Shown here: positions 13,228 through 63,706 of the stretch, in pieces
Numbering within the stretch: position 1 is the stretch's first letter
How the letters are laid out: each line of letters begins with the position of its first letter
Assembly (NCBI GenBank): GCA_963767275.1
Contig: CAVYDL010000006.1
Coordinates: 941,867 to 1,005,866, forward strand
Length of the DNA: 64,000 nucleotides
Direction of reading: 5' to 3'
Source of the DNA: an uncultured delta proteobacterium
GTDB taxonomy: Bacteria; Desulfobacterota; Binatia; UBA9968
The notes under the pieces: model-generated
What the model was told of the DNA's origin: nothing
The model's input: only the letters and a program-made list of their open reading frames with translations
Database searches by the model: none
Translations under genes and position numbers: made by a program

Positions 13228-13236
13228 TTTGAGCCA

Positions 13237-21184: not shown

Positions 21185-22940
21185 ATGTGCGGCATTGCCG
21201 GCAAATTGAATTTTCAACAGGGTCGTCCCGTCATGCACGACACCATCGCGCGGATGTGCGCGGTGATGCGGCACCGTGGTCCCGACGACGAGGGGATATA
21301 CCTGGACAGGAATTTCGGCATGGGCATGAGGCGGCTCAGCATTATCGATCTCGCTACCGGCAAACAGCCGATCAGCAACGAGGACGGGTCGATCTGGACG
21401 GTATTGAACGGGGAAATCTACAATTTTTTGGAGCTGCGCGAACCTCTCGAGCAGAAAGGCCACAAGTTTTATACCCATACCGACACCGAGGTGATCGTTC
21501 ATTTGTACGAAGAATACGGAGAAAAGTTCGCCGAACATCTGACCGGCATGTTTGCCGTCGCGGTCTGGGACAAGCGCCAACAGAAGTTGATCCTGGCGCG
21601 GGACCGGCTGGGGATCAAGCCGCTTTACTACTCGGAAGGCCCGAACGGATTACTTTTCGGATCGGAAACCAAGGCGATTTTACAGGACGGCATGGAGCGA
21701 GAGGTCGACTTGCAAGCGCTCCACGATTATCTCTCGTTCAACTACGTGCCGGGGCCGCGTTCGATTTTCAAGCATGTCCGCTCCCTTCCCGCTGGGCATG
21801 TTTTGACTTGCTCGGGAAAGAGCGTGGCGATTGCGCCTTATTGGCAGCTGCAATATCCGACGGCCTCGGCCAATGGCAAGCGGCCGCTCCGAGCAGAGCT
21901 ACTGTGAAGAACTGTACGAGCTGCTGTGCAGCACCGTCAAACAGCACCTGATCAGTGACGTTCCGCTCGGGGTTTTTTTGAGCGGGGGGGTCGATTCCAG
22001 CGCTCTGGTTGCGCTGATGAGCAAAGTTTCCTCGCAAACGATCCGGACTTTTTCCATTGGTTTTGAAGAGAAGTCATACAATGAGCTCGACTATGCCAGG
22101 ATCGTCGCGCGAGAATTTGGCACGGAGCACCACGAGCTGGTTGTCAGTCCCAACATCGTGGATCTGTTGCCCGAACTGGTGCGTTACTTCGATGAGCCGT
22201 TTGCGGATAGCTCGGCGATTCCGGTTTATTGTGTCTCGAAGCTCGCCAGGCAACACGTCAAAGTCGCTCTGAGCGGCGAGGGGGGCGACGAGGTGTTCGC
22301 CGGGTATCACACCTACACCGCCTATAAAATCGCCGAATTGTACAAACGCCTGCCGCGAAAGCTTGCCGCCGAGGTTATTCCGGCCATTGTCAGGCGACTG
22401 CCGGTTTCCCACAAAAAGGTCAGCTTCGATTATAAGGCGAAACGATTTATCGAGGGAGCGCTGCTGGCCCCGGCGGAGGGCCACTATTCGTGGAAGGTGA
22501 TTTTTACCGAGGAGGCAAAAGCCGCGCTTTACGCAAGTAATCGCGAAAGTTTTCAAGACCCCCTCCGGCTATACCAACGCGTCTATGAGGACTGCCCATC
22601 GGCCGATGTACTGACCAGGCTGCAGCACATCGACCTCAAGGTCTACCTGCCGGACGATATTCTCGTTAAGGCCGATCGAATGAGCATGGCCAATTCTTTA
22701 GAGGCGCGGGTGCCGTTCCTCGATCACCGGGTGGTCGAATTCGCCGCCTCGCTGCCGGCGCAGCTCAAACTTCGAGGCTTAACCAAGAAATATATTCTCA
22801 AGCGAACGATGTCGCGTGACCTTCCGGCCAAGGTCCTGAACGGAAAAAAGCGTGGCTTTAACGTTCCCATGCCCGGCTGGCTGCGCCACGAGTTGCGCGA
22901 CGTGGTGCACGAAGTTCTCGGTCCACGGCGGCTCAAATAA
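21185..22940 (+). CDS. asnB: Asparagine synthase (glutamine-hydrolysing) family amidotransferase, copy 1. The N-terminal Cys2 is present. There is a frameshift near 21880-21900.
   Basis: 'MCGIAGKLNF...RGPDDEGIY' is the class-II GATase domain. '...VFLSGGVDSSALVALM' (PP-loop) is in the downstream frame. Confidence 0.75.
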
Positions 22941-26287: not shown

Positions 26288-27154
26288 TTGAGATTTGACT
26301 TTATGAGCTTGCCAACTTTTTTGGGTATTGGGGCTATGCGATCAGGCACTTCCTGGCTTTATGTGCAGTTACGAAGCCACAAAGATGTTTACATGTCGGA
26401 GCAAAAGGAACTCAACTTCTTCAATGATTTCTATAGCAACGGCATAGAGTGGTACCGTGGACATTTTCCGTTAGAAAAAGAAGCCGCGAACTATAAAGCA
26501 GTCGGAGAAATTACCCCGACGTATATGACGGCTCCGGATGCTCCGTCCAGAATTCATTTTCATATACCCGATTGCCGGTTTATCGCGATTCTTAGAAACC
26601 CGGTCCATCGCGCTTACTCTGAATATACGAAGAGGCTCCGGGATTTCAATTTTAATGGAACGTTCGATGAGTTCGTCGAGCGATTCCACGAAGTGCTTGC
26701 TCGAGGGTACTACGCGGAGCAGCTTAAAAACTATTTTCGACTATTTTCGCGGGATCGATTTCTCATCCTCATTTTTGAGGAAACGGTCGGAAATCATCAA
26801 GCAGCGACGCGAAAATTATCATCGTTTTTGCAGATCGATCCGAATGGGTTTGATCTGAGCCGAATGCAGCAAAAAGTTAATCCCTCATATCTTCCTAGAA
26901 TGCCGAGCCTCTACTCCTCAGCGGTAAAGATGAGGCAATCTCTGGTGAAGAAAAACCTGGGGCGGGTTCTCACGGCTGCCGAAAAGCTCGGGTTAATTCA
27001 TGCCGCTCGACAGGTTGTTCGATTTCGCGGACCTAGATCTGAGCTCCCCAAGATGGATGAAAGAACACGAAAGCGGCTGAACGACGTGTATTTGCAAGAA
27101 ATTCACACTCTCGAAGAACTCCTAGAACACGACTTATCGACCTGGAGGAACTAG
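26288..27154 (+). CDS. Sulfotransferase (subtype C), intact
   Basis: 'LGIGAMRSGTSWL' (5'-PSB) and 'ILRNPVHRAYSEY' (3'-PB). Confidence 0.8.
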   Translation: MRFDFMSLPTFLGIGAMRSGTSWLYVQLRSHKDVYMSEQKELNFFNDFYSNGIEWYRGHFPLEKEAANYKAVGEITPTYMTAPDAPSRIHFHIPDCRFIAILRNPVHRAYSEYTKRLRDFNFNGTFDEFVERFHEVLARGYYAEQLKNYFRLFSRDRFLILIFEETVGNHQAATRKLSSFLQIDPNGFDLSRMQQKVNPSYLPRMPSLYSSAVKMRQSLVKKNLGRVLTAAEKLGLIHAARQVVRFRGPRSELPKMDERTRKRLNDVYLQEIHTLEELLEHDLSTWRN

Positions 27155-34305: not shown

Positions 34306-34449
34306 TCGCGCCGATCTCAAACCCGTAGTCCCGCTTAAGGCTGAGATAGTGATTATGATTAGTGGTAACAGACCATGAGTTTTCCGCTTTCTAGGGCATT
34401 CACACATCGAGCTGAACTTCAGGTTGTCTTTAAAAGGAGGAAAAAAACA

Positions 34450-35649
34450 ATGCAACGAACGTCATTCTCCACATGCTTCGCTGTCGCGGCGGCGTTTATC
34501 GGGCTGCTGTTCGGTACACCATTACACGCACGCGCCGATTCCTTTAACTTCGAGAAAATCGCCGATTTTAACACTGTCATTACCGGTGGGAAGAAGACTC
34601 TTACCGGCCTTCACGATCCTTCTATCAATGATCAGGGGCAAGTGCTGTTCAGGGCAAGAGGTAAGTCCGGTCAGCGCGGCGTTTATGTCTACCAGGGCGG
34701 TATTCTTTCGGTAGTGGCAGACGCCAATACTGTTCTCCCCGGTGAGGCAGGGGTTTTAACGGGCGTTCACGATCTAGCGATGAATGACAGCGGCGAAGTA
34801 GTGTTTGAGGCAACAGGCAGTTCCGGCCAGCAGGGCATTTACTTCAAAGCGGGCGGAAGTCTCGCGGTTGTGGCAGACCGCAAAACGTCCATTCCCGGTG
34901 GAAGCGGAAATTTCACCAATCTCAGCGCTCCTTTTATCAGTAAACAGGGGGAGGTTCTTTTTAAGGGAGACGGCGAGAACGATCAGCACGGTATCTACAG
35001 CTATAGAGGAGGCATACTGGCTATTGTCGCCGACACTAAAACTGCTATTCCTGCGGGAAAAAAATTCTTCGTTAATTTCCGTCATCTTTCGATAAATAGG
35101 GCGGGACAGGTGGTGTTTAACGGCAAGGGCCACTCTGAGCAGCGCGGCATTTATATCCACATGGGCGACCGTCTAGTGGTTGTAGCGGACCGCAACACGC
35201 CTCTTCCTGATGGAAGTAAAACTTTTAAAGCGTTCCGCAAAGCTTCCATTGACGCTGAGGCGGAGGTCGCGTTTAAGGCAAAAGGGAAATCCGATCAGCG
35301 CGGTATTTATACCGACATCGGAGGTAATCTCGCTGTCGTGGCGGACCACAATACGGCAATTCCGGGCGGAGCGGGAAATTTTAATTTATTCGGGATCCCT
35401 TCTATCGATAGCGGGCACGTGGCCTTTACAGCCAACGGCGATAACCAAGGAGGTCTATACACGACCCTCGGCGGATCGCTTACGAAGGTCCTCGCATTGG
35501 GCGATCCGCTTGCTGGAAAGACAGTGACGGAAATAATTTTTCGACCGGACGGCCTTAAAGGTAACAACGTCATCTTCAAAGTCATCTTCGACGATTCTTC
35601 GAGAGGCATCTACCGCGCCGTTCTGGCTACCTCAGCTTCGAGTTCCTGA
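34450..35649 (+). CDS. Secreted repeat protein with ~7 x 48-aa repeats, probably a 7-bladed beta-propeller
   Basis: AAGGAGG RBS. Signal peptide 'MQRTSFSTCFAVAAAFIGLLFGTPLHARA'. The repeating unit is 'G..G.Q.GIY...GG.L..VAD..T.IPGG.G.F..F..P.I...G.V.F.A.G' (e.g. QRGVYVYQGGILSVVADANTVLPGEAG / QQGIYFKAGGSLAVVADRKTSIPGGSG). Confidence 0.6.
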   Translation: MQRTSFSTCFAVAAAFIGLLFGTPLHARADSFNFEKIADFNTVITGGKKTLTGLHDPSINDQGQVLFRARGKSGQRGVYVYQGGILSVVADANTVLPGEAGVLTGVHDLAMNDSGEVVFEATGSSGQQGIYFKAGGSLAVVADRKTSIPGGSGNFTNLSAPFISKQGEVLFKGDGENDQHGIYSYRGGILAIVADTKTAIPAGKKFFVNFRHLSINRAGQVVFNGKGHSEQRGIYIHMGDRLVVVADRNTPLPDGSKTFKAFRKASIDAEAEVAFKAKGKSDQRGIYTDIGGNLAVVADHNTAIPGGAGNFNLFGIPSIDSGHVAFTANGDNQGGLYTTLGGSLTKVLALGDPLAGKTVTEIIFRPDGLKGNNVIFKVIFDDSSRGIYRAVLATSASSS

Positions 35650-38158: not shown

Positions 38159-39052
38159 ATGAGATCGCCTGATTTTTTTATCGTTGGAGCGCCGAAATGT
38201 GGCACCACCGCGATGAATTTTTATCTCAAACAACATCCCGACATCTTCATGTCTGAGAAAGAAATTCATTTTTTCGGTGAGGATTTGCGCTTCACGGTCC
38301 CCAGGGTGACGAGACAACAATATCTCGCCGCTTTTTCCCTTGCGACAGAGGCTAAAAGAGCTGGGGAGGCCGCGGTGTGGTACTTGTACTCGCGGCAGGC
38401 TGCAGACGAAATAAAAGAATTCTCTCCTGCGGCGCGGATCATTATTATGCTTCGCAACCCCGTCGACGTTATGTATTCGCTCTACCGGCAACGCCTGTAT
38501 AACGGCAACGAAGATATCGAAGATTTCGAAGCGGCATTGGATGCCGAGGAGAGTCGAGAGTTGGGAGAACGCATGCCGCGACGGCCGTCGAATCTCATGG
38601 GGTGCTTTTACCGGGCGAGCGTGAAATTCACGAGTCAAGTCCGGCGCTATTTCGATCGGTTCGATCGGCAGAATGTGCATGTCATCATTTTCGACGATTT
38701 CCAGAAAGATGCAGCTCTGGTCTACAGCCAATGCTGTGATTTCCTCGATGTAGATAATCGTTTTCGGCCAAGCTTCCCCGTCATTAATGCTAGGCAACGT
38801 GCCCGCAGCGAGTTTATACGCGATCTATTGCACGATCCTCCCCAATCCTTTCACTGGCTTGCCAGGGCGTTGATGCTTCGGCGGAACCGCCAGGGGGGAT
38901 ACAAAGGCTGGCTAAAGCGTTTAAATACCACTCACGCCAAAATTCCGCCGATGAAACCGGAGTTGCAGCGGTCACTGAAGAAAGAGTTCCGGCCAGAAGT
39001 GGAAAAGTTAAGCGAGTTGCTCGACCGCGATCTAACCACCTGGTGCAAGTGA
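38159..39052 (+). CDS. Sulfotransferase (subtype B), intact
   Basis: 'RSPDFFIVGAPKCGTTAM' and 'IIIMLRNPVDVMYSLY'. Confidence 0.85.
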   Translation: MRSPDFFIVGAPKCGTTAMNFYLKQHPDIFMSEKEIHFFGEDLRFTVPRVTRQQYLAAFSLATEAKRAGEAAVWYLYSRQAADEIKEFSPAARIIIMLRNPVDVMYSLYRQRLYNGNEDIEDFEAALDAEESRELGERMPRRPSNLMGCFYRASVKFTSQVRRYFDRFDRQNVHVIIFDDFQKDAALVYSQCCDFLDVDNRFRPSFPVINARQRARSEFIRDLLHDPPQSFHWLARALMLRRNRQGGYKGWLKRLNTTHAKIPPMKPELQRSLKKEFRPEVEKLSELLDRDLTTWCK

Positions 39053-39575
39053 TGAGAACTAGCACTGAATCAGGGCCGCTCCCTGGAGCAATATCGCAGA
39101 CCGTTGCCCGCACAGGTACTAACCAGCAATAACACATTAGCCACCTCTACCCTGTGGCGTCTTTCCGTCTTCTTAGTTAAGCTCTCTCGGTATCATTATC
39201 GCTCATTCGTTTTCTTATGCATTTGAAAATTTCGCGAGCCACTTTCTAACACTCACAAAACCACCTCCGTTCTAAGCAATGCTAGTTTTATAAGAGGTTC
39301 CGCCTAAAAATGACCGGACAGCAACATTTTTGAACTTCACGGATGTAATGAATCCCATTCACTTTAACTGTGTTTTCTGTATGAAATTGCAGTCAACCTA
39401 TTGGCAGCGCAGGTATGTGAGGGCGGTGTCGTGATTCTTTTTTCAGCGTGAAATGAGTACGGCTGCATGTCCCAATTTGTGCAAAGGCAGCGGCAGAGGA
39501 CGGCTTTGATAAAATGATTTGGTGCGCTGATCGATTCAGTCCTGGTTTCTCAACGGTTTACACACCAGGCTTGTC

Positions 39576-39591
39576 TGGCACTGCCCTTGCA
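39576..39591 (+). promoter_or_regulatory. Candidate sigma-54 (-24/-12) promoter, TGGCACtgcccTTGCA
   Basis: It matches the consensus TGGCACG-N4-TTGCW at 11 of 12 defined positions, with the GG/GC spacing exact. It sits 17 nt upstream of the 39608 ATG. Confidence 0.4.
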
Positions 39592-39607
39592 CATGGCGTC
39601 GGGAACC

Positions 39608-41083
39608 ATGAAATTCCCGATACTCATATCCATGTTTGCCGTGGCCAATCTATTTTTGAGTTTGCCTGCGTTTGCGAAAGACAAACCACCGACCGAACCC
39701 GTAGTGATCGACGACGGGGCCTACACTAGCTCTTTTATAAAGCTACATGCGAAGTGGACTAGCCCTAGTCCCGAATCGGGAACCGTCAAATTTAGATATC
39801 AAATCCGCGAGGGGTCAACTTCAGGCCCTATCATAGTTGGCTGGCAGTCGGTTGGTCTGGCAACCGAAATCACCCATCTTGGGTTAAGTCTTTTCAACGG
39901 GAAGACCTATTATATTGGGGTGAAGGCGATAAATAGCGAAGGCAAGACGTCCGACGTGGGTTACTCGGACGGGATCACAGTACAAAATAGTTCCGCACCG
40001 CCGCCACCACCGCCACCGCCACCACCGCCGCCGCCACCACCGCCGCCGCCACCACCGCCACCACCACCACCGCCGCCACCACCAACGAGCGGGGTACTGG
40101 AAGGATTTGGCTCTCAAACATCAGGTGGTGCGGGGAAGCCAATCGTCTTTGTTAGCAATCTGAACGATTCCGGTCCAGGCTCTCTCAGGACTGCGCTGTC
40201 TGGTGGAGATAGGACGATTCAATTCTTGGTGGGTGGTTTGATCCCGCTTACCAGTACTCTGCGTGTGAATGGAGCAAATATCACGCTTGACGGTTGCAGT
40301 GCCCCTGCACCAGGAATCACTCTTGTTGGTCGTCCGGTAGACATTCGCGGCAACTACGGTGCGCACGATGTTATCGTTCAATGTATTCGTAGCCGAGATT
40401 CTATTGATGATGGTTTCACTATTAGCGAAGGGGCGTTTAACATAGTCCTGGATCGGGTAAGTGTTGCTAATGCTGCTGACGGAGCTATCGACATTGGTAG
40501 TTGGAACGGAAAGCATACGCACGATATAACTATCCAGCGTTCGTTAATGACTCAGCCACGTAAGATCATGTTGGTGAAATATTTTGATGTTAAACGGGTT
40601 AGTTTACATCATAATTTATTTGCTGATTCGACTGATCGGAGCCCGCGCATTGCCTATAACCAGAGCGGCGGGTTGCCAGCGAATGAAATTACCGTCGACT
40701 TGCGCAACAACGTGATCGCCAATTGGAGGGGAGGAATCGGCACGGATGCATCCTGCGGCGCTAAAGCCAATATAGTAGGAAATTACTTTTCCAATTCTGG
40801 TGCATCGGTGACCGATCAGAAGCAGGGAATCGTTGTGTCCAGTGCATCCGAAACTTGCCTCCAAGGTTTTGCATACGTGGAGGGCAACGAGAGTGCAGAT
40901 GTTCCGGATATAGACAACACGCCTTATATTCGCGTGCCCAAAGAAACCATCCCGTTTGCCGCACCACTGATCACAGAGCAGAACGCATGTGGCGCTGCGC
41001 AAATCGTTCTAGCCACGGCTGGCCATCCGATTCGCGACGACATTGATCAAGCTGCGGTCGGCAGAGTGAGAATCAATTGCTAA
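39608..41083 (+). CDS. Secreted multidomain polysaccharide lyase: FN3-like domain, ~30-residue polyproline linker, then a pectate-lyase-family-1-like beta-helix catalytic domain
   Basis: Signal peptide 'MKFPILISMFAVANLFLSLPAFA'. '...VKFRYQIREGS...YYIGVKAINSEGKTS' is FN3-like. Then come the Pro run and 'GKPIVFVSNLNDSGPGSLRTAL ... IVLDRVSV ... SLHHNLF ... DRSPRIAY' (PL1 vWiDH / HHN / RxPxxR-like motifs). Confidence 0.75.
   Translation: MKFPILISMFAVANLFLSLPAFAKDKPPTEPVVIDDGAYTSSFIKLHAKWTSPSPESGTVKFRYQIREGSTSGPIIVGWQSVGLATEITHLGLSLFNGKTYYIGVKAINSEGKTSDVGYSDGITVQNSSAPPPPPPPPPPPPPPPPPPPPPPPPPPPPPTSGVLEGFGSQTSGGAGKPIVFVSNLNDSGPGSLRTALSGGDRTIQFLVGGLIPLTSTLRVNGANITLDGCSAPAPGITLVGRPVDIRGNYGAHDVIVQCIRSRDSIDDGFTISEGAFNIVLDRVSVANAADGAIDIGSWNGKHTHDITIQRSLMTQPRKIMLVKYFDVKRVSLHHNLFADSTDRSPRIAYNQSGGLPANEITVDLRNNVIANWRGGIGTDASCGAKANIVGNYFSNSGASVTDQKQGIVVSSASETCLQGFAYVEGNESADVPDIDNTPYIRVPKETIPFAAPLITEQNACGAAQIVLATAGHPIRDDIDQAAVGRVRINC
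39996..40084 (+). repeat. (CCG/CCA)n simple repeat encoding ~29 consecutive prolines
   Basis: An uninterrupted run of ccg/cca codons. The antisense strand reads as a W/R-rich ORF, which is an artefact. Confidence 0.9.
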
Positions 41084-41224
41084 ATGGCTTGGCATGTCTC
41101 CACAGTCCCGATAGCGGCGAGACGGAACTAACGCATCACTCGATGGCTTGGCGCGGCTTTGTTCCGGTGAACGCAGCGCCGGTTACATAGACGCCGGTAT
41201 CGTCAATCTTTTTTCAGCAGCCAA

Positions 41225-41506
41225 ATGACTACGACTGCTCGGCCTAGTTCAGCGTTGGCAAACAAACTGCCATCGGCAACAAGCCCCTTGTTATTTGCCG
41301 AATATGAACACGGAATCATCGTGTCGTCGTTTCAGAAGGGTTTGGCTGCGGCCTTTGCGGTATCTGAGGGTGTAGGTAACGGGGCGCCTGGATCCCTCGA
41401 TGAATTTATGGCGAGCTTGCCGGACAACATGGTTCCCTCACGCTCCGGTAACAATCTTTACCTGACCGGTTCAGGAAAAGTTGCAGTTGCGGATCTGCTA
41501 AATTGA
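41225..41506 (+). CDS. Hypothetical small protein (93 aa); weak call
   Basis: An ORF in a 640-nt gap with no recognisable motif. Confidence 0.2.
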   Translation: MTTTARPSSALANKLPSATSPLLFAEYEHGIIVSSFQKGLAAAFAVSEGVGNGAPGSLDEFMASLPDNMVPSRSGNNLYLTGSGKVAVADLLN

Positions 41507-41721
41507 CATTTTCTTTTCAGGATAGCCCGCCGTAAACCCGCGTTCTTGGATAAGCGACCCAATACATAAATTCTCCCGTCGGGCTCATAATCCTTCTGGA
41601 AGTTGCAACGGGTTTTACCGCCCCGGCGGCCTCGTTGACTAAGCTTCGCTGTGTGAGGTAAAAACTCGGGCAGCGTCGTGGCGTGCTCGAGAGCGTCCAC
41701 CCGGCCTGAAAGGACCCAATT

Positions 41722-43398
41722 ATGGCGATTCTAGAAACGCTGAATAAAGGCTTTAAGAGAATCGGCGCGGCGAGGCTGGGTCTTCTAGTAACCGTGACAA
41801 TTCTCTCCGCGCTCTATCCAGCTATTCCATCCCTGGCACAACCGTATCAAGGATTTGGAGCGAATACGCCAGGCGGGACGGGGCAGCCAGTTTACCAGGT
41901 GACAAACCTCAACGATTCCGGACCCGGAAGCCTGCGTGACGCCGTGTCTCTGGGAAATCGGACCGTCGTGTTCGATGTGGCCGGGGAGATTGTGCTTTCA
42001 AGTGAGATCTACGTGAAAGGCGCTTTCATCACCATCGATGGTTTTAGCGCCCCCTCGCCGATAACTCTGGTTAACGATGGCCTGAGAATCGTCGGGAATA
42101 TCGGCGCACATGACATCATCGTGCGGGGAATACGGGTGCGGAATGCTATAGGGGATAGCATCACGATCCGTGACGGGGCGCATAACGTTCTCATCGATCA
42201 TATCTCCTCCCAGGGGGCGACCGATGGGGCCATCGACATCACCAGGGGCGCGCACGACGTGACTGTCCAGTGGAGTATCCTCGCTGAGAACGGGCCGGAA
42301 CATAACTTCCTGGCATTGGTTGAGTTTCAAGCCCTACGTGTCACCTTTCATCACAACCTGTTTGTGAAAGGGCAAAGTCGAAACCCGCAGTCCGGCTGGG
42401 ATACTACTTTAGCCACAACCGCGCCGGAGATCGTCACTGATATCCGCAACAACCTGATTTGGGATTTCTCTGATTACGGGACCGTGGCTACTAAGAAGAC
42501 GAAAGCCAATGTAGTGAACAACTTTTACTATTCCTCGCTTAATCCGAAAGCTAAAAGAGCACTCTATGTGACTCAGGGCAGCCAGGTCTTTGCCGCAGGC
42601 AACTACAGTCATAACGGTGCGAACGTTGATGGGGAGGGGAATCAGCAGGCTCCTTTCCCTGTCCATGAAGGTGCGGTGGATATCACCGACGCCTGCACCG
42701 CTGCTCACCAGGTACTTGCCGAGGCGGGAGTAAATCCGCGGGACGTAGTAGACCAGCAGTATCTCTCGGCCGTGTCGCTACCGTCATGCGGTGCGCCTAA
42801 CCCAACTATCGCAGTCAGCCCGGCTGGGCTCAATTTTTCGGCCACCATCGGGGCACCAAACCCATCCCCGAAGGTACTGACGATCACCGACTCTGGTGGT
42901 GGCGTGTCTTGGAATGCGACTATCAGTGCGCCGTGGCTCTCAGTTTCCCCTATGGGAGGGAAAACTCCATCTAATGTGACGGTGACCGCGAACTCGTCCG
43001 GCCTGCCGGTAGGCTCCCACCTAACGACGATTAGCATTATCGCTCCAGACGCAGAGAATCCTCCATTGTCGGTCCCGGTAACTCTGACAGTGTCCCCCAC
43101 TGTTACGACGATACCCCAGATCACTACGCCGATACCAGGTGCAGCACTTCCGGGTTCAAGCGTCACTTTCGGCTGGGTCACCAACGGTGCGAATGTCGAC
43201 AAGTGGCAGCTGTATGTCGGGTCCAGTCAAGGCGCGAAAAACCTTCACGACAGTGGCAAGTTTGGCGGAAGTTCAACCACCTCTAAAACTGTATCCGGCT
43301 TGCCGGTCGATGGACGCACAATCTGGGTGCAACTTCGCTTCAAAATCGGCGCGAATTGGCAGTTCGCCGATTTTCAGTACACCGCTGCTCCGCAGTAA
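41722..43398 (+). CDS. Secreted PL1-like polysaccharide lyase with a C-terminal BACON-like/Ig-like domain and a further beta-sandwich domain
   Basis: 'AQPYQGFGANTPGGTGQPVYQVTNLNDSGPGSLRDAV', 'VLIDHIS', 'VTFHHNLF' and 'SRNPQSGW' are the PL1 motifs. The C-terminal 'AVSPAGLNFSATIGAPNPSPKVLTITDSGGGVSWNATISAPWLSVSPMGGKTPSNVTVTA' fits the BACON pattern. Confidence 0.75.
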   Translation: MAILETLNKGFKRIGAARLGLLVTVTILSALYPAIPSLAQPYQGFGANTPGGTGQPVYQVTNLNDSGPGSLRDAVSLGNRTVVFDVAGEIVLSSEIYVKGAFITIDGFSAPSPITLVNDGLRIVGNIGAHDIIVRGIRVRNAIGDSITIRDGAHNVLIDHISSQGATDGAIDITRGAHDVTVQWSILAENGPEHNFLALVEFQALRVTFHHNLFVKGQSRNPQSGWDTTLATTAPEIVTDIRNNLIWDFSDYGTVATKKTKANVVNNFYYSSLNPKAKRALYVTQGSQVFAAGNYSHNGANVDGEGNQQAPFPVHEGAVDITDACTAAHQVLAEAGVNPRDVVDQQYLSAVSLPSCGAPNPTIAVSPAGLNFSATIGAPNPSPKVLTITDSGGGVSWNATISAPWLSVSPMGGKTPSNVTVTANSSGLPVGSHLTTISIIAPDAENPPLSVPVTLTVSPTVTTIPQITTPIPGAALPGSSVTFGWVTNGANVDKWQLYVGSSQGAKNLHDSGKFGGSSTTSKTVSGLPVDGRTIWVQLRFKIGANWQFADFQYTAAPQ

Positions 43399-43889: not shown

Positions 43890-45506
43890 GTGCAACCGAT
43901 GAAAGAATATACCGAGCCTGCGCGTCTCTCCCTATCCGGCGAACGCGTTGCGCATGTCCTTGGCGCCCTAGGATTTGCATCGGTCGGAAGATTCTTGTTC
44001 TGGTCGTTGGCATTCGGTGTTGCCTACACGCAAGCACCGCTTTACACGTCAAATCAAAACACCAAATTTCTTATTGGATTGGCAGACGCTGGTTTGGGAT
44101 TTTTGAACGAGGACTGGCTGGCCAATACCTTAGACCCTTTTCCGCTCTTTAGCTTCTTAGTCTATGCGACTTATCGCTACCTTCACGCAAACGCGTTCTA
44201 CTTCTACAATATTATTATCTTCGGCGTTTATCTTTATAGCGTGGCAGGGATCGTGGCGAAAATCTGCAACATCAAGGAACCACGACCTAAATATCTTACG
44301 TTCCTGGTCACTACTATTGCACTTCATTCTTACGTTTTAGACTCTCTCTCTATGAGAATTTTTGGTTTTGAACTGGCACAGCTCCACTATGGCATGGCCG
44401 AATATCATATCATCGGGCGAATATTTCAGCCTAGCGTATTTGGCGTTTTCATTCTCTTATCAATCTACGCGTTTCTTAGTAAACGTCTCTTTTCGGCTGC
44501 TTTTTTGTTGGTTTTCGCGGCAATAATTCATCCCACTTACCTTTTAATTTCTGCGGTACTGACAGTCGCATATATGTTAGTTGTTTACCGAGAGGAAAAA
44601 AGCTTAAAGAAGTCACTCTCTCTAGGGCTTTTCAATCTGACGTTGATACTGCCGGTCTTGGGCTATCTCTTCATCTACTTTAGCCCAACGTCGCCTGAGT
44701 TGTGGAGCAACTCGAAAGCGGTGTTGATCAATATCAGGAGCCCGCATCACTTCAACCCGGAAGTTTGGCTTGGCGGGCTCGTGTATATCAAACTAGGCAT
44801 TACGGCAGTGGCTATTTATCTGGTCAGAAACACGCGGCTTTTCCCGATCATGTTGTTACCTTTTGCGGTTGCCGTAATTCTGACCATGACACAGGTAATA
44901 TGGGGAAATAACGGCCTTGCGGCTCTTACGCCCTGGCGTATGTTCATTGTCTTAGTGCCGCTGGCGCTCGCTATTATTGTCGGATATCTCGTTTCGCGAT
45001 TTTTCGAGAAGTTCTTCAATCCGGCCGGGGAACGATATGCAGTAACGACTCTGGTAAATTTTACGGTACTGCTGGTGCTGGTTCTCTATGGCGCGAATAC
45101 GCAGATGAAACGTTTTACGAATTACTATGGCGGCGAAACGATGCCGATGATGAACTTTGTAAGGGAAGCGAAATCTTTCGGTGACAACTTTCTCATACCC
45201 GTCGAATTTGAAGACTTTCGACTTTATACAGGCGCGCCTATCTTGGTAAATTTCAAGTCAGGGCCATACAAGGATACTGAATACATGGAGTGGTATCAGC
45301 GCTTCATCGGAGCTAGCGATTTTTACAATGCCCGGGACGAGGCCGCTTGCGACATTCTTCAAAGGTTGCACGATAGGTACAAGCTAACGCACGTTGTCGT
45401 CAAAGGCGCCCATCCCGGCGCACGGTGCGGGAATTTGGCGAAATTATACGAAGATGATCACTATAGCGTTTATAGAATACAGAAAGAGAATTCATCAGGC
45501 AGCTAG
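43890..45506 (+). CDS. Polytopic integral membrane protein of unknown function with a C-terminal soluble domain. It is a possible GT-C-like glycosyltransferase or polymerase, but that is speculative.
   Basis: There are at least 11 hydrophobic segments in residues 1-400, and a hydrophilic tail 'YGGETMPMMNFVREAKSFGDNFLIPVEFEDF...'. I see no diagnostic motif. Confidence 0.55.
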   Translation: MQPMKEYTEPARLSLSGERVAHVLGALGFASVGRFLFWSLAFGVAYTQAPLYTSNQNTKFLIGLADAGLGFLNEDWLANTLDPFPLFSFLVYATYRYLHANAFYFYNIIIFGVYLYSVAGIVAKICNIKEPRPKYLTFLVTTIALHSYVLDSLSMRIFGFELAQLHYGMAEYHIIGRIFQPSVFGVFILLSIYAFLSKRLFSAAFLLVFAAIIHPTYLLISAVLTVAYMLVVYREEKSLKKSLSLGLFNLTLILPVLGYLFIYFSPTSPELWSNSKAVLINIRSPHHFNPEVWLGGLVYIKLGITAVAIYLVRNTRLFPIMLLPFAVAVILTMTQVIWGNNGLAALTPWRMFIVLVPLALAIIVGYLVSRFFEKFFNPAGERYAVTTLVNFTVLLVLVLYGANTQMKRFTNYYGGETMPMMNFVREAKSFGDNFLIPVEFEDFRLYTGAPILVNFKSGPYKDTEYMEWYQRFIGASDFYNARDEAACDILQRLHDRYKLTHVVVKGAHPGARCGNLAKLYEDDHYSVYRIQKENSSGS

Positions 45507-46040: not shown

Positions 46041-47735
46041 ATGAAAAGAGATCCTTCGCGACTGGCTGGTCGGATTTTCGATATTGCTGTCGTCGGCGGG
46101 GGAATCTATGGGATGAGCGTGGCGAGAGACGCCGCCTTAAGAGGACTGACGGTAAGCTTGGTCGAGCAAGGGGACTTCGGCAATGCCGCTTCCTCGAATC
46201 ATCACAAGATCATCCATGGAGGGTTTCGATATCTGCAACACGCGGACTTTTCAAGGATGCGCGAATCAATTAAGGAGCGCAACATTCTTATGCGAATGGC
46301 TCCGCATCTCGTCCACCCATTACCGTGCGTCATACCGACTTACGGTCACCGTCTAAAAGAAAAACTCATGTTTGCGGTGGCGCTGAAGTTAAATGATTTG
46401 ATCAGCTTTGATCGCAATCGAAAGCTGCGAGAGGACCAAAAAATCCCCGCTGGACGTATTTTATCAACGGCGCAATGTCTGCAGCTTTGCCCCAATATCG
46501 ATCAACGCGGGTTGAGTGGAGGCGCACTTTTTTTCGACGCCCAGGTCGACAACCCCGACCGTCTCAACCTATCGGTTTTGTTTTCCGCCGCAGCGGCCGG
46601 GGCGGACTTCGCAAATTACGTGGAGATGACTGAATTCCTGCGAGACGGTTCTGCGGTTTCAGGCATACGGGTTAGGGATACGCTTTCGGGAGCAGAGTTT
46701 GCGATTCGCGCTCGGGTTGTTGTCAATTGCACCGGTCCTAGGCCGGAGCAGGTTCTCCACTTGCTCGGACGGCCGCCGAGCGAAATACCTACTAAGCTGT
46801 TGAAAGCGATAGTACTGGTAACGCGGCCTGTAGTGGGCAATACAGCGGTTGGCATACGCAGTACATCGCCCTATACCGATCGAGACGCCGTGGTTCAAAA
46901 AGGGTACAGGTTCTTTTTTATCACACCCTGGCGACATAAGTCGCTGGTCGGCACGTTTGAAACCCCGTACAAAGCGGATCGCGACGGCCGGGATGTAAGT
47001 GAAAACGAGATTACGGATTTCCTCCGACAAATCAACGATGCTTTCTCGGGTGCCCGCCTTCAACGGGAGGACGTGGTTGGAGTTTTGAGCGGCCTTGTCC
47101 CCGCTGCTGACGCGGCGGAGCAAAATAGTCACGCGCAACGCCAGAATCACTGGACCATACGAGATCACGGAGCCGAAGACGGTATACCAGGGCTGCTATC
47201 TGTTGTCGGAGTGAAATATACGACGGCGAGAGGCATTGCCGAGAGAACCGTCAACCTGGTGTTAACGAAACTTGGCCGCAAGTTTATAAGATCTCGAACT
47301 GCGGAAACTCCAGTGGCCGGGGCCGTCATCAATGGCTGGGACGAATTTGCCGATCGAGCGGCAAAAGAACGCACTAGGCGGATCAGCACGGAGACGCTTA
47401 GGCATTTGTTGCAGTGCTACGGATCTGAATACCGCAATATTCTGCGCTATTGCGACGAAGATTCGCGCTGGAGCCGGTCTATCAGCAGTGACGCGCCGAC
47501 GATACGGGCTGAAGTGCTCCATGGCATACGGTCCGAGATGGCTCGCAAACTGAGCGATATCATTTTCCGACGCACGGAGTTAGGGACGGCGGGGCATCCA
47601 GGAGATGCATGCCTGCACGCGTCCGCGGAAATCATGCGCGCTGAATTGAACTGGAACAAAGCAACCATGTTTCGAGAGTTGGATGAAGTTCAGCAGGGAT
47701 TTTCTTACGAAAGACAACCAAGCCGTGCAGGTTGA
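46041..47735 (+). CDS. FAD-dependent oxidoreductase, glycerol-3-phosphate dehydrogenase (GlpD/GlpA)-like
   Basis: 'DIAVVGGGIYGMSVARDAALRGLTVSLVEQGDFGNAASSNHHKIIHGGFRYL' matches the GlpD N-terminal FAD-binding region closely. Confidence 0.75.
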   Translation: MKRDPSRLAGRIFDIAVVGGGIYGMSVARDAALRGLTVSLVEQGDFGNAASSNHHKIIHGGFRYLQHADFSRMRESIKERNILMRMAPHLVHPLPCVIPTYGHRLKEKLMFAVALKLNDLISFDRNRKLREDQKIPAGRILSTAQCLQLCPNIDQRGLSGGALFFDAQVDNPDRLNLSVLFSAAAAGADFANYVEMTEFLRDGSAVSGIRVRDTLSGAEFAIRARVVVNCTGPRPEQVLHLLGRPPSEIPTKLLKAIVLVTRPVVGNTAVGIRSTSPYTDRDAVVQKGYRFFFITPWRHKSLVGTFETPYKADRDGRDVSENEITDFLRQINDAFSGARLQREDVVGVLSGLVPAADAAEQNSHAQRQNHWTIRDHGAEDGIPGLLSVVGVKYTTARGIAERTVNLVLTKLGRKFIRSRTAETPVAGAVINGWDEFADRAAKERTRRISTETLRHLLQCYGSEYRNILRYCDEDSRWSRSISSDAPTIRAEVLHGIRSEMARKLSDIIFRRTELGTAGHPGDACLHASAEIMRAELNWNKATMFRELDEVQQGFSYERQPSRAG

Positions 47736-47748
47736 CAATCTGAAAATT

Positions 47749-49024
47749 CTGATGATCGCACCCACGCCATTTTTTGCGGACCGTGGGTGTCACATCCGTA
47801 TTCTAGGCGAAGCCAAGGCGCTGATTAACTTAGGCCACGAATTAATCCTGTGTACGTATTTCCTCGGTCGGGATATCGAAGGTGTCCGGGTTGTGCGTAC
47901 CTTGTCCGTTCCGTGGTACAACAAGCTGTCTGCCGGACCATCATGGCATAAGTTCTACATCGATTTGTTACTGTTGGGAAAAGTCGTCTCGGTGTGCCGT
48001 ACGTTTCGGCCCCATGTCATTCACGCGCATCTACATGAGGGAGTCGTTATCGGCAAGATCGCAAGTCTGCTTTTTGGGATTCCGCTGGTTGCGGATCTTC
48101 AGGGCGGCCTGACCGATGAGCTCCTGGCTCACAGGTTCATCCCAGAGGTCCCCATCTTGGTAAAGCTCGTCCGCTGGATTGAGAAAAAGATCGACCAGAT
48201 GCCGATACACCTGATTGTCAGCTCCAAGCAAACTGCCCAGAGCTGCGTCGATACCTATGGTATCTCTGGAGACCGGGTCAGTTCGGTGACCGACGGCGTC
48301 GATCTCGATATTTTTTCGCCGCGCGAAAAAGATTTGGTTCTGCAAGCGGCTCTAGGCATTCACAAAGGCGGTGGGAACGATGAATGATAGGGTGGTCATT
48401 TTCGTTGGGCTGCTTTCCCAATATCAGGGAATAGACTTGTTGCTGGAGACTATACCTATTGTGGCGCGAGAAGTACCCGAGGTGAAGTTTTTGATCGTCG
48501 GATATCCGGGTGAACAAATTTATCGGGATAGGGCGCGCGCGTTGGGAGTAGAGAGATGGACCCATTTCACCGGCAGGATTTCCTACGAAGATGTGCCGCG
48601 TTATCTGGCGTTGGCGGAGGTCGCGGTTTCTCCGAAGATTTCTACTACGGAGGCGAATTTAAAGCTGTTCACATACATGGCTATGGGACTTCCGACGGTC
48701 GTTTTTGATAATCCCATTAACCGTGAAATTCTCGATGATGTCGGAATCTATGCTAAATATGGCGACGTAGAATCGCTGGCGGCGGCATTGATCAGAGTTC
48801 TTCAAGATCGAGCATGGGGTCGCCAACTCGGTGAGCGGAGCCGCCAAAAAGCAGCGGCCAGCCATTCTTGGTTACAAGTCGGAAGACGATTGGGCGACAT
48901 CTACCATTCGATAGGCGCTTATACTGCCTCGGATCCGAAGGAGCGACACAATGGGCAAGGAAAAGGTATTAGTCACAGGGGGGGCCGGTTTCATCGGTTC
49001 CCATTTAGTAAACGAATTGGTTAG
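47749..49024 (+). CDS. GT4 family glycosyltransferase, with a frameshift near 48360-48385
   Basis: 'KILMIAPTPFFADRGCHIRIL' (N-domain) and 'VVIFVGLLSQYQGIDLL...FLIVGYPGEQ...VAVSPKISTTEANLKLFTYMAMGLPTVVFD' (C-domain) are in two frames. Confidence 0.65.
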
Positions 49025-59097: not shown

Positions 59098-60966
<1,869 letters not shown>

Positions 60967-62341: not shown

Positions 62342-63706
62342 ATGGGGGAGGATAAAGTGATGGAGTTGATGGCGGAGACTGTTGTTGAAAATCGAAGTAA
62401 TTCTGTTCACGAGGATTGGGAAGCAAAGATTCGTGATCGCTCCGCAAAACTCGGAGTTATTGGCTTAGGCTGCGTCGGACTGCCACTGGCCATCGAAATG
62501 GCTCGCGAGGGTTTTCAAGTGACCGGGATTGATATTAACGGCAGCAGGGCGGCATCCGTCAATGCAGGCGTATCGTATGTTTTAGACGTGCCAAGTAACG
62601 TTCTCCATGCCGCCGTTGCTAATCGGAGCCTGAGAGCGACGCAGTCATTCGCCGCGTTGGAATCGGTTGACACTATCAGCATATGTGTCCCGATGCCTTT
62701 GCGGAAATCCAAGGATCCCGATCTTTCGTACATCGTGGCCGCCGTGGAAGCCGTTCATAATCACCTTACGCCCGGAAAGTTGATCGTTATCGAGAGCACC
62801 ACATATCCTGGAACTACTCGGGAGGTTGTGCTTCCCATTTTGGAAAAATCAGGTCTCAAGGCCGGTGAAGACTTTTTCCTGGCATTCTCCCCCGATAGAG
62901 TCGATCCTGGCAATCAGACTTATACGATACGAAACATTCCGAAAATCATTGGCGGCCTGACTGCCCGTTGTACTGCCATGGCGACGCTTCTTTACCGGCA
63001 GTTTGTCGACAGCGTTATTCCGATGTCCTCTTCGGAGTCGGCAGAAATGGTTAAGCTTTTGGAAAATACTTTCAGGAGCGTCAATATCGCTTTGGTCAAC
63101 GAAATGGCTCGCATGTGCTGCCAGTTCGGTATCAACGTCTGGGAAGTCATTGACGCCGCTAAAACAAAGCCGTTTGGTTTCATGCCGTTTTATCCCGGAC
63201 CCGGCCTGGGGGGGCATAGCATTCCGATCGTTCCGGACGATCTCACATGGAAAAGTAGAATGAACGGTTTTCAACCGCGCCTGATCGAGACGGCCGCACT
63301 TGTCAATAGCCAGATGCCGGAATTTACCGTCAGCCGAGTCGCATCTGCGCTCAACCAAAAAAAGAAGAGCATAAAAGGCTCTCGCCTCCTTGCACTCGGA
63401 ATTGCCTACAAGCGGGATGTTAGCGATACGAGGGAATCGCCGGCACTCGAGGTGGCAAGAGCTCTAATAGAAAAAGGCGCGGCGCTCGAGTATTCGGATC
63501 CCTATGTACCGATGGTTTCTATAGGCGAAGAAACTCTCGTGTCGGTTCCCTTGACCGCACAACTAATTCAATCGATGGATTGCGTGTTGATATTGACGGA
63601 CCATCCCGCTTTTGACTACCCCATGATCGCAACCCATAGTGCTGTAGTAGTGGATTGCCGAAACGCGCTCAAAAATTTCTCTGGTGCAAACGTGATGCCG
63701 CTCTAA
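62342..63706 (+). CDS. Nucleotide-sugar dehydrogenase (UDP-glucose/GDP-mannose dehydrogenase family; WecC/WbpA-like UDP-N-acetylhexosamine 6-dehydrogenase). Ser stands at the catalytic Cys position.
   Basis: 'KLGVIGLGCVGLPLA' (NAD Rossmann) and 'PGPGLGGHSIPIVPDD', where the family consensus is GGHC(I/F)P. The codon is agc at ~63208-63210. Confidence 0.8.
   Translation: MGEDKVMELMAETVVENRSNSVHEDWEAKIRDRSAKLGVIGLGCVGLPLAIEMAREGFQVTGIDINGSRAASVNAGVSYVLDVPSNVLHAAVANRSLRATQSFAALESVDTISICVPMPLRKSKDPDLSYIVAAVEAVHNHLTPGKLIVIESTTYPGTTREVVLPILEKSGLKAGEDFFLAFSPDRVDPGNQTYTIRNIPKIIGGLTARCTAMATLLYRQFVDSVIPMSSSESAEMVKLLENTFRSVNIALVNEMARMCCQFGINVWEVIDAAKTKPFGFMPFYPGPGLGGHSIPIVPDDLTWKSRMNGFQPRLIETAALVNSQMPEFTVSRVASALNQKKKSIKGSRLLALGIAYKRDVSDTRESPALEVARALIEKGAALEYSDPYVPMVSIGEETLVSVPLTAQLIQSMDCVLILTDHPAFDYPMIATHSAVVVDCRNALKNFSGANVMPL

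Follow-up and report, generated by a model that had tools for sequence, protein, structure and literature searches.

The gene at positions 39608..41083 (+ strand) of the window, as we call the whole stretch of 64,000 nucleotides that was analysed, encodes a modular PL1-like lyase (lyase1), predicted to be secreted, in which an FN3-fold module and a catalytic beta-helix domain are joined by an uninterrupted tract of 29 prolines. This is an enzyme of a familiar type, a modular PL1-like lyase in an EPS locus, and it does not overturn current understanding. The sole unusual feature is the length of the linker together with its rapid change between close relatives, which have between 7 and 31 prolines; its length is not fixed by design. 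The tract is an unusually long, length-unstable linker, with putative functions as a rigid rod or in the control of polymer length.

Organization of the lyase1 gene

The open reading frame list and the translation give a product of 491 aa plus stop, with an ATG start; the other in-frame starts are a TTG at 39587 and an ATG at 39593. By eye, the first 23 residues (MKFPILISMFAVANLFLSLPAFA; 39608..39676, +) were read as a predicted Sec-type signal peptide, since residue 2 is a Lys and a hydrophobic core and an A-F-A site are present; the cut is predicted before KDK. No lipobox Cys was seen in it, and the same pattern is kept in P0001, P0002 and P0004. There follow the FN3-fold module (aa 24-130; 39677..39997, +), assigned with AF2 and Foldseek, the polyproline tract (aa 131-159; 39998..40084, +), made of 29 CCR codons, and a PL1-like right-handed parallel beta-helix domain of 332 residues (aa 160-491; 40085..41080, +). 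Homologs of 472-480 aa share this architecture; the exact 491-, 496- and 498-aa versions had no match in the protein collection searched. A promoter and terminator scan of positions 38900..41900 gave counts at shuffle expectation and is therefore uninformative on transcription units. The host is a Binatia-like soil bacterium.

An FN3-fold module behind the signal peptide

The sequence-only reading had placed an FN3-like domain at the N-terminus, and fold searches agree. The AF2 model of aa 25-130, of moderate confidence (pLDDT 70.6), has six beta strands by DSSP, and its top 50 Foldseek matches in the PDB are all FN3 domains (E ~1e-4, TM 0.6-0.7, probability 1.00), including that of Bacillus circulans chitinase A1 (PDB 1K85). 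As judged from this search with a predicted model, the module would adopt the seven-strand beta-sandwich of FN3 topology, and the FN3 pattern of a B-strand Trp, a C-strand Tyr and an F-strand Tyr is visible in its alignment. At the sequence level, Pfam returned no family for aa 25-130 at E<=10, fn3 (PF00041) included, phmmer against the PDB gave weak matches to cytokine-receptor FN3 only (E 0.7-2), and a word-indexed protein search for homologs retrieved three close fragments only. A metagenome locus scan located related modules, repeated in tandem, in predicted proteins of very large size. The fold is shared with the FN3 domain of chitinase A1, both being accessory to a polysaccharide-cleaving enzyme; compared with the FN3 modules of CAZymes, however, that of lyase1 is N-terminal, right after the signal peptide, lacks a Pfam fn3 match, and has its sequence relatives in tandem arrays of giant surface proteins. 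It is probably a portable accessory module, which may have a binding role.

The polyproline tract and its variation in length

The linker, estimated at about 29 residues in the sequence-only reading, consists of exactly 29 uninterrupted prolines encoded by 16 CCA and 13 CCG codons, a restriction to two codons with p ~6.5e-8 given local proline codon usage. It is the sole run of at least five prolines in the window when all six frames are examined, and is far beyond chance. TRF describes it as a 15-nt minisatellite (period 15, 5.8 copies, 93% matches). Since a conserved domain adjoins it in the same frame on either side, and a Pro-rich stretch occupies the corresponding position in every relative, we conclude that it is translated as polyproline. 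A reading of the tract on another frame or strand was rejected, because in all relatives the conserved domains flank the proline frame.

A comparison of assemblies fits the expectation that such a tract is prone to contraction and expansion. There are 29 prolines in the window and 30 and 31 in two other assemblies (L003 and L004) with 100% identical flanks, all differences among the three over 12-14 kb falling within the tract; other relatives have 17, 15, 11, 10 and 7. In relatives at 90-98% identity the tract has graded lengths of 10-17 codons and its codon content differs, and all length variants remain in frame. As assemblies with identical flanks carry 30 and 31, the count of 29 is one state of a variable, or hard-to-assemble, tract. 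In the Binatia ortholog the linker is Pro-rich but interrupted (PPSPPPPAAPPPSPPDEPP), with fewer long runs, its extended character being kept. The counterpart of lyase1 was left uncalled as a gene in L003, and in L001 a single nucleotide is deleted shortly upstream of the proline codons.

In the AF2 model the tract has a pLDDT of 59-69 and no assigned secondary structure. If fully extended as PPII, it would span ~9 nm, a figure of arithmetic only (29 x 0.31 nm, all-trans). Free polyproline chains are only semi-rigid, with kinks at cis-Pro. Runs of 25-64 prolines serve as inter-domain linkers in other bacteria, in OmpA-family proteins, subtilases and TrbI. Uninterrupted runs of 25-56 prolines lie between the beta-barrel and OmpA domains, behind S8 subtilase domains, and in TrbI, FecR-like proteins and metalloproteases encoded by other genomes. 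A genome-wide (CCN)25 scan yielded at least 120 stretches, which speaks for presence in many lineages and gives no frequency; among the matches listed, which did not include the genome of the window, poly-C homopolymers made up about half, most of them located at the ends of contigs or in scaffold gaps. The (PT)n linkers of cellulases, the OmpA hinge and TrbI resemble lyase1 in placing a proline spacer between independently folded extracytoplasmic domains, whereas the lyase1 tract differs from known proline linkers in being a young, codon-homogeneous minisatellite. We know of no polysaccharide lyase with such a proline tract, and none was found in a brief literature search either.

The catalytic domain belongs to a divergent PL1-like clade

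Profile and fold searches uphold the proposal that the C-terminal part of the protein is a PL1-like beta-helix lyase. The AF2 model of aa 160-491 (pLDDT ~97) has the right-handed parallel beta-helix expected of PL1, and matched VexL (PDB 6FI2; 1e-13) and PfPL1 (PDB 9BUJ; 4e-13) in Foldseek, followed by PelA and Bacillus PL1 enzymes, the twelve best PDB matches (E 1e-13 to 3.5e-6) all being PL1 pectate/pectin lyases. With the family profile against the PDB, VexL (1.6e-33) and PfPL1 (2.8e-31) again came first, followed by Jun a 1 and PelA. These nearest solved relatives belong to PL1 subfamilies 13 (VexL) and 2 (PfPL1), respectively (PMC11229556).

The putative active-site segment (40409..40648, +) was delimited with an 88-sequence family alignment and with profile alignments. 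It contains an acidic triad, D268 (40409), D291 (40478) and D295 (40490), the lysine K319 (40562), and an R-x-P-R motif formed by R344 (40637), P346 and R347 (40646) after the HHN rung at 334-336. The triad is conserved in 82, 87 and 77 of the 88 sequences, in that order, K319 in 67, R344 in 86 and P346 in all 88. In the profile alignments R344 coincides with R232 of VexL and with the R-x-P of PelA and Jun a 1, and the region of D268, D291, D295 and K319 aligns with the PelA segments 'WDAMNI', 'HDGALDI' and 'HDKTMLIG'. Lyase1 therefore has, as far as alignment can tell, the catalytic Arg in R-x-P and the acidic triad plus Lys that characterise PL1, and the Asp/Arg constellation whose absence would have spoken for a non-enzymatic beta-helix is present. 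The vWiDH-like motif is altered to LDR (D282-R283). A conserved Cys pair, C461-C491, appears in the family alignment and fits an oxidising, extracytoplasmic location.

Pfam was of little help: PF00544 (Pectate_lyase_4) did not match lyase1 at E<=1, the whole protein gave only a sub-threshold Beta_helix match, and the best NCBIfam match, to PelZ, was partial (1e-16), with 60 bits against an equivalog cut-off of 840. The paralogous lyase described below scored 16 bits with PF00544, for which the cut-off is 24, and some lyase1 homologs carry precomputed matches to it. With no Pfam match of lyase1 above threshold, domain calls were taken from the profile searches against the PDB and the fold searches, and since PF00544 was unmatched lyase1 is filed as PL1-like, in a divergent clade. 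It is in our view a PL1-like lyase with its catalytic constellation intact, predicted to be competent.

VexL, the Vi-antigen lyase of Achromobacter denitrificans, is thus the best match by sequence, profile and fold. Like lyase1 it is a beta-helix lyase with a signal peptide, and its gene belongs to the locus that synthesises its own substrate polymer. Its residues K195, R232 and R235 correspond to K319, R344 and R347, and its C-terminal disulfides have a counterpart in the conserved Cys pair. In assays the K195A, R232A/K and R235A variants were inactive, and 5% of the wild-type activity was left in R235K (PMC6003464). The two proteins are only ~22% identical, however, VexL has a single domain, and it works with an ABC-transporter capsule system, whereas the lyase1 locus has a Wzx/MurJ-like flippase and Bac_transf. 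VexL is also metal-independent, with Q148, R172 and N175 where lyase1 has D268, Gly292 and D295, so lyase1 does not have the VexL-type site in which the Ca ligands are replaced and Arg172 is present, and a dependence on Ca2+ would be deduced from its retained Asp triad alone. The beta-helix and the catalytic Arg are also common to PfPL1, second-best by structure and profile, and to PelZ, likewise of PL1 subfamily 2; PfPL1 carries a 125-aa helical C-terminal decoration, and enzymes of this type, in contrast to what is proposed for lyase1, are catabolic and encoded in pectin-utilisation loci (PMC11229556). With the Ca2+-dependent PL1 enzymes PelA, PelC, Bacillus Pel and Jun a 1, lyase1 has in common the fold, the three Asp, the Lys and R-x-P; it departs from them in its low identity (13-20%), LDR in place of WiDH, A349 instead of Arg at the sixth motif position and the missing PF00544 match.

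A second lyase, a gene relic and the sharing of modules

A paralogous PL1-like lyase (lyase2; 41722..43398, +; 558 aa) follows downstream, with a signal peptide, the catalytic domain, a BACON_2 domain and, beyond it, a further C-terminal domain of ~100 aa to which no family was assigned. The BACON domain noted in the sequence-only reading was recovered by Pfam at ~42799..43095, with 33 bits for the excised segment and 29.4 bits for the whole protein. The claim that both lyases have the same catalytic core stands as far as overall similarity (39% identity, E 1e-64) and the Asp/Arg residues (D145, D168, D172 and R220) are concerned, but has to be qualified, as in lyase2 the conserved Lys is missing and Gln takes the place of the second Arg.

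Between the two genes, tblastn and translation identified what is left of a GH140-like (apiosidase-like) gene, a 3'-end relic (41204..41512, +), with 74% identity in tblastn to residues 434-534 of the L128 protein and with stop codons upstream of the matching stretch. In a relative the GH140-like gene is intact beside the lyase, and the L128 protein has the Pfam domains Apiosidase and BACON_2. The FN3 module of lyase1 (86% identity) heads a neighbouring GH140-like enzyme in a relative, and the BACON domain of the GH140-like enzyme is 51% identical to that of lyase2. The idea that targeting modules may be interchangeable between enzymes of the locus gains support from these sequence matches.

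The locus and its conservation

The surrounding genes agree with the suggestion of a sulfated-EPS locus. A sulfotransferase (38159..39052, +; Pfam Sulfotransfer_1 and Sulfotransfer_3) lies directly upstream of lyase1, and others are found at 12574, 13237 and 26288, the locus total being four or five. PAPS would be supplied by a bifunctional ATP sulfurylase/APS kinase (59191..60966, +; Pfam ATP-sulfurylase, APS_kinase and PUA_2). An enzyme of the UDP-glucose/GDP-mannose dehydrogenase family (62342..63706, +; Pfam UDPG_MGDP_dh N-terminal, central and C-terminal domains) could supply uronic acids, which the substrate of a beta-elimination lyase must contain. The locus also has a Bac_transf priming transferase, many GT4 genes, a MurJ/Wzx-like flippase, a carbamoyltransferase and AsnB-like genes. 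As judged from its gene content, this is a large locus for biosynthesis of a sulfated EPS, predicted to be able to make uronic acids and sulfate esters, and the predicted signal peptide of lyase1 together with this location in an acidic-polysaccharide biosynthesis locus reproduces the VexL-type arrangement. A Binatia MAG contains the lyase pair with the same neighbours (sulfotransferase, GT4, Bac_transf and DUF6798) at 77% protein identity, and the arrangement recurs in ENA contigs as well. A single-domain homolog with 46% identity lies in a similar sulfotransferase/Bac_transf/GT4 locus. Several genes are split in the window and in its relatives.

Proposed function and alternative explanations

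Taken as a whole, the explanation we consider most probable, if with some reserve, is that lyase1 is a Sec-exported, catalytically competent PL1-type lyase, its location beyond Sec export being presumed, which would most likely cleave a uronate-containing polymer by beta-elimination, probably Ca2+-assisted, with Arg344 acting as the base. Its likeliest substrate would be the sulfated, uronic-acid-containing EPS made by the locus itself. Its task would then be the trimming, release or clearance of this polymer, comparable to that of VexL for the Vi antigen and of AlgL for alginate. The polyproline spacer, presumably in PPII conformation, would join the portable FN3 module to the enzyme and hold the two domains apart, and its 15-nt minisatellite would expand and contract in frame, its length not being conserved.

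Lyase1 might instead be a catabolic, secreted pectate or uronan lyase acting on foreign polysaccharide, with an incidental position in the EPS locus and with the FN3 module and the proline tract as usual CAZyme accessories. Characterised relatives other than VexL all degrade pectin or pectate (PMC11229556 among the sources), source records name members of the family 'pectate lyase', and many of these carry BACON or the CBM6, CARDB or PKD modules typical of catabolic secreted enzymes. Two homologs (P0008 and P0060) lie outside recognisable EPS loci, and the GH140-like, apiosidase-type neighbour in a relative belongs to a family known from pectin breakdown. Yet the two-lyase cassette holds its place among EPS genes in the 77%-identity locus, the 46%-identity homolog has EPS-type neighbours, the locus itself seems able to make uronic acids and sulfate esters, and no uronate transport, uronate catabolism or PUL-type genes were found among the ~50 window ORFs scanned, all of which makes a catabolic role unlikely in our opinion. 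A far less probable option, which we regard as close to negligible, is a beta-helix that serves as adhesin or scaffold and has no enzymatic activity, as the sub-threshold Pfam pectate lyase model and the change of vWiDH to LDR could suggest; it was rejected on residue conservation, as D268, D291, D295, K319, R344, P346 and R347 are all present and family-conserved, and VexL cannot do without the residues equivalent to K319, R344 and R347 (PMC6003464).

With respect to the tract, an artefact of assembly or consensus calling could account for its extreme length and for the 29/30/31 differences, the true tract being long but fixed, or shorter. The restriction of the differences between the window, L003 and L004 to the tract would agree with this, as would contig names in the style of long-read assemblers, the split genes and the deletion in L001. 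Against it, three independent assemblies all have at least 29 codons, the relatives with 10-17 codons form a graded series and differ in codon content, which represents real divergence, every variant is in frame, and the lack of any disagreement in the rest of 13.7 kb argues for accurate consensus sequences; we see an artefact as the less likely case, albeit one to be kept in mind. It is very unlikely, in turn, that the tract acts mainly in translation, through an EF-P-dependent stall that throttles synthesis or separates the co-translational export or folding of the domains. Consecutive prolines stall ribosomes, and polyproline is enriched in inter-domain linkers, possibly for the timing of folding (PMC12856214), but a few prolines suffice for stalling and 29 are unneeded, and the interrupted linker of the Binatia ortholog keeps the extended character with fewer long runs. 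Such a role would in any case be compatible with that of a spacer.

A more speculative view, which we consider quite doubtful, is that the tract, as a fast-mutating in-frame minisatellite, is a length-tunable molecular ruler, the FN3 module gripping a fixed layer and the lyase cutting at a distance set by how many prolines there are. FN3 would then hold the cell surface, the base of the EPS or a partner protein, and slippage by 3 or 15 nt would make EPS chain length or capsule thickness vary within a population, much like phase variation but by degrees. By analogy, the similar length of the 25-32 Pro hinges of OmpA-family proteins in other bacteria (~8-10 nm) hints that envelope distances may be measured in this way generally.

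Lyase1 is, then, a candidate processing enzyme for the sulfated, uronate-containing EPS of Binatia/Binatota, to our knowledge a candidate class (SeqCode/Candidatus names) known only from metagenome-assembled genomes. Its clade is large, with over 1,500 clusters of proteins described as 'pectate lyase-like', in which no characterised member closer to lyase1 than VexL (~22% identity) was found; were lyase1 characterised, the clade would gain a substrate. The concept of a lyase that forms part of a biosynthesis locus, derived from VexL and AlgL, would likewise be widened to Wzx-type, sulfated EPS systems. As the linker forms a natural series of 7-31 prolines on an otherwise constant protein, it offers a ready-made experiment on linker length in a two-domain secreted enzyme, and the same series suits the study of how bacteria translate very long proline runs.

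Domain organization and active site of the lyase

The gene at 39608..41083 (+) encodes a lyase (lyase1) that stands out by its long and unstable proline linker, modular PL1-like lyases of EPS loci being a type already known. It is a single long ORF on the + strand with its stop at 41083; translation from the ATG at 39608 gives 491 aa, and other in-frame starts are found at TTG 39587 and ATG 39593. Residues 1-23 (MKFPILISMFAVANLFLSLPAFA) form a predicted Sec-type signal peptide with charge, hydrophobic core and A-x-A, a pattern also present in homologs, and no lipobox cysteine could be read in this segment. Residues 24-130 appear in the AF2 model as a beta-sandwich (pLDDT 70.6) whose 50 best PDB matches, the FN3 domain of Bacillus circulans chitinase A1 among them, are all fibronectin type III (Foldseek E ~1e-4, TM 0.6-0.7). 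Pfam returned no match for this module even at E<=10, so its FN3 identity comes from the fold and not from a family model; related modules (40-53% identity) are found repeated in tandem in predicted metagenomic surface proteins of very large size. Exactly 29 prolines follow (aa 131-159), and then the catalytic domain. The sequence-only reading had proposed an FN3-like domain, an uninterrupted linker of about 29 prolines and a PL1-like lyase core; the observation is real and the annotation correct.

The assignment of the core rests on sequence, profile and fold searches, in all of which the Vi-antigen lyase VexL of Achromobacter denitrificans (PDB 6FI2) was the best match: 4.7e-13 in a phmmer search of PDB with lyase1; 1.6e-33 with an 88-sequence family profile, followed by the PL1 pectin/pectate lyase PfPL1 (PDB 9BUJ, 2.8e-31), Jun a 1, Thermotoga maritima PelA and Dickeya PelA; and 1e-13 in Foldseek with the full-length model, followed by PfPL1 (4e-13), PelA and Bacillus PL1 enzymes. 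Lyase1 did not reach the threshold of Pfam PF00544 and its match to NCBIfam PelZ was partial, for which reason we call it PL1-like and qualify its membership in PL1. In the profile alignment D268 corresponds to the 'D' of PelA 'WDAMNI', D291 and D295 to 'DGALDI', K319 to 'HDKTMLIG' and to VexL K195, and R344-S-P346-R347 to VexL R232-N-P-R235. Conservation among the 88 homologs is high for D268 (82), D282 (79), D291 (87), D295 (77), K319 (67), R344 (86) and P346 (88), while HHN 334-336 and D364/R366/N367/N368 vary hardly or not at all. In VexL, where R232 is the proposed base, the changes K195A, R232A, R232K and R235A left no activity in the reported assays and R235K retained 5% of that of the wild type (PMC6003464). 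The metal-independent VexL carries Q148, R172 and N175 at the positions of the metal site, whereas lyase1 keeps the acidic triad of the Ca2+-dependent PL1 enzymes, from which we infer a Ca2+-assisted beta-elimination. A cysteine pair conserved in the family (C461 in 82 and C491 in 78 of the 88 sequences) parallels the terminal disulfides of VexL and would fit an extracytoplasmic enzyme.

Variation of the proline tract

The tract is encoded at 39998..40084 (+) by 16 CCA and 13 CCG codons, and is the only run of at least five prolines in the six frames of the 64-kb window. It is in frame with conserved flanks, and a proline-rich stretch occupies the same position in all relatives, which makes it a translated polyproline and not a chance or non-coding repeat. 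The AF2 model assigns no secondary structure to the linker, at pLDDT 59-69. As DNA, the tract is resolved by TRF into 5.8 copies of a 15-nt unit (CCGCCGCCACCACCG), with matches of 93%. CCA and CCG are its only codons although they make up 57% of the proline codons in the surrounding genes, a restriction with a probability of ~6.5e-8 by chance over 29 codons; CCT and CCC also occur in the shorter tracts of relatives. The long tract looks like a recent amplification.

Two contigs that are 100% identical to the window outside the tract, L003 (13.7 kb) and L004 (12.3 kb), carry 30 and 31 prolines respectively, all differences falling within 39996..40060. The run is of 17 in L140 (94.5% nucleotide identity to the window), 15 in L001 (98% amino acid identity in the C-terminal domain), 11 in L141 (90% nucleotide identity), 10 in P0001 from L002 (93% amino acid identity), seven, then VEPP, in P0002 (91%) and eight in P0061 (42% in the catalytic domain). 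P0004 belongs to an NCBI MAG that bears the label Candidatus Binatia and shares the gene neighbourhood of the window, which makes a Binatia-like bacterium the probable source of the window; the protein is 77% identical in amino acids and has an interrupted run (PPSPPPPAAPPPSPPDEPP). The position and proline character of the tract are conserved and its length is not. Two of these contigs show other peculiarities. At L001 1540..1566 (ENA ERZ25039597 contig_33407) a 1-nt deletion ~20 nt upstream of the 15-codon tract breaks the gene into two called ORFs (P0121 and P0003), as a pseudogene or a sequencing error. At L003 3863..5362 (ENA ERZ25039516 contig_213) gene calling passed over the intact 30-proline ORF in favour of short ORFs on the two strands, which may be why the exact lyase1 protein is absent from the protein collection.

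A word-indexed search with the catalytic domain found more than 1,500 homologous clusters, most of them consisting of signal peptide and catalytic domain and some with C-terminal CARDB, CBM6, PKD or BACON domains. The FN3-proline-lyase architecture is restricted to one small clade, made up of the window, P0001, P0002, P0004 and P0061; the homolog P0008 has another N-terminal module followed by eight prolines.

The longest natural proline run of B. subtilis is four (PMC12856214), and a run of 29 is far outside the range of model bacteria. When prokaryotic genomes, one for each species, were scanned for stretches of 25 CCN codons in a row, at least 120 were obtained; among the matches listed, about half were poly-C artefacts, and at least ~50 lay within long ORFs and encoded 25 to >60 prolines with mixed codons. 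According to Pfam, the long runs (25-56 prolines) in the scanned proteins are inter-domain linkers. Uninterrupted runs of 25-32 prolines lie between the beta-barrel and the peptidoglycan-binding OmpA domain of alphaproteobacterial outer-membrane proteins (L052, L057, L058, L013, L077, L106), hinges that would measure ~8-10 nm if fully extended, similar to the lyase1 linker. Other examples are 37 prolines after an S8 subtilase domain (L038), 29 in a TrbI protein (L043), 56 in a GSDH-like protein (L096), and long linkers in FecR-like proteins and metalloproteases. Long polyproline spacers are thus a rare but recurrent device of envelope and secreted proteins; for polysaccharide lyases, none came to light in a shallow search of the literature.

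Genomic context and the paralogous lyase

The gene content of the window is that of a large locus for polysaccharide biosynthesis, with a Bac_transf priming transferase (28358), many GT4 glycosyltransferases, a MurJ/Wzx-like flippase (8973), at least four sulfotransferases (12574 and 13237, within 12574..14151; 26288..27154; 38159), sulfatase-family proteins (2316..3710, 30576), DUF2334/deacetylase-like proteins, methyltransferases, a carbamoyltransferase, AsnB-like amidotransferases and NAD-dependent epimerases. A bifunctional ATP sulfurylase/APS kinase (59191..60966) is a source of PAPS and a UDP-sugar dehydrogenase (62342..63706) a source of uronic acid, a residue that a beta-elimination lyase requires in its substrate. 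Together, PAPS synthesis, dehydrogenase, sulfotransferases and sulfatase-family genes give this Binatia-like genome a self-contained set of tools for a polysaccharide that is acidic and sulfated. Several ENA contigs and the Binatia MAG have the same cassette, in which lyase1 and its paralog lyase2 stand amid genes for HEAT proteins, a sulfotransferase and a DUF6798 membrane protein; in most cases a GlpD-like or epimerase gene follows farther along. Gene content and recurring cassette support the sulfated-EPS locus originally proposed. The window also encodes a DUF7453 protein (34375..35649) and a multi-pass DUF6798 membrane protein (43890..45506), which may be a polymerase- or ligase-like component and whose gene lies at most two genes from the lyase pair in all related loci examined.

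Lyase2 (41722..43398, +) is 39% identical to lyase1 in the catalytic domain (E 1e-64) and has a BACON_2 domain, in agreement with the C-terminal BACON attributed to it, and a further C-terminal domain of ~100 aa. The idea of a same catalytic core holds for the acidic triad and the catalytic Arg, but F196 occupies the K319 column and Q223 the R347 position, so that the two cores are not equivalent. The missing Lys and second Arg are residues essential in VexL, and lyase2 may differ in specificity or be less active. In JGI contig Ga0214473_10003776 (L128 2393..4045) a GH140-like (apiosidase-like) protein with signal peptide, FN3 and BACON_2 is encoded directly downstream of the lyase1 ortholog P0002. 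Its FN3 is 86% identical to that of lyase1 (39608..39982) and its BACON 51% identical to that of lyase2 (42799..43095), identities that point to exchange of both modules among enzymes of this locus and would be compatible with a shared targeting role. Of the GH140-like gene the window retains, between the lyases at 41204..41512 (+; ORF 41225..41506), only a relic that covers the last ~100 codons, 74% identical and with upstream stop codons.

Proposed function and alternatives

At the level of domains the interpretation is near certain; substrate, location and spacer mechanics are what we infer beyond it. As a whole, we consider it fairly probable that lyase1 is an active PL1-type lyase, exported through Sec, which would trim or release the sulfated, uronate-containing EPS of the locus, with its FN3 accessory module kept apart from the enzyme by a proline spacer that would span ~9 nm (29 x 0.31 nm) if all-trans PPII and whose length would drift rapidly. 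The rigid rod and the length control suggested from the sequence are reasonable as hypotheses. A linker of such variable length speaks against a finely tuned distance, unless tunability itself is the point, which we regard as quite improbable; a mainly translational role of the tract seems slightly less probable still.

Our best guess that the substrate is the polymer of the locus itself comes from the EPS context and the analogy with VexL and AlgL. A single-domain homolog (46% identity) lies between Bac_transf, sulfotransferase, GT4 and carbamoyltransferase genes, and two further homologs are without such EPS-type neighbours; a catabolic lyase for foreign pectin-like polymers is, in our opinion, rather unlikely. 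That the beta-helix is an inactive adhesin devoid of the Asp/Arg constellation is hardly credible and was discarded, given that D268, D291, D295, K319, R344, P346 and R347 are present and conserved. For the 29/30/31 series two readings remain, true slippage between populations or consensus noise of long-read assemblies. An artefact of assembly, which would be compatible with the trimming or release of EPS by lyase1, is suggested by contig names in the style of long-read assemblers and by several split genes, but the flanks of the window, L003 and L004 agree perfectly, and we find it somewhat doubtful.

Several genes of the window appear to be split into overlapping ORFs (47683..48387 / 48371..49024 and 21185..21907 / 21831..22940; possibly also 24256/24636, 31681/32088 and 56561/57069/57467), among them the N- and C-halves of GT4 and the GATase and synthase halves of AsnB. 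They are frameshifts, which reflect either pseudogenes or systematic errors of long-read assembly. In L003 and L004, which are independent assemblies, the GT4 N-terminal half is likewise called as a gene of its own, with the same 234 aa.
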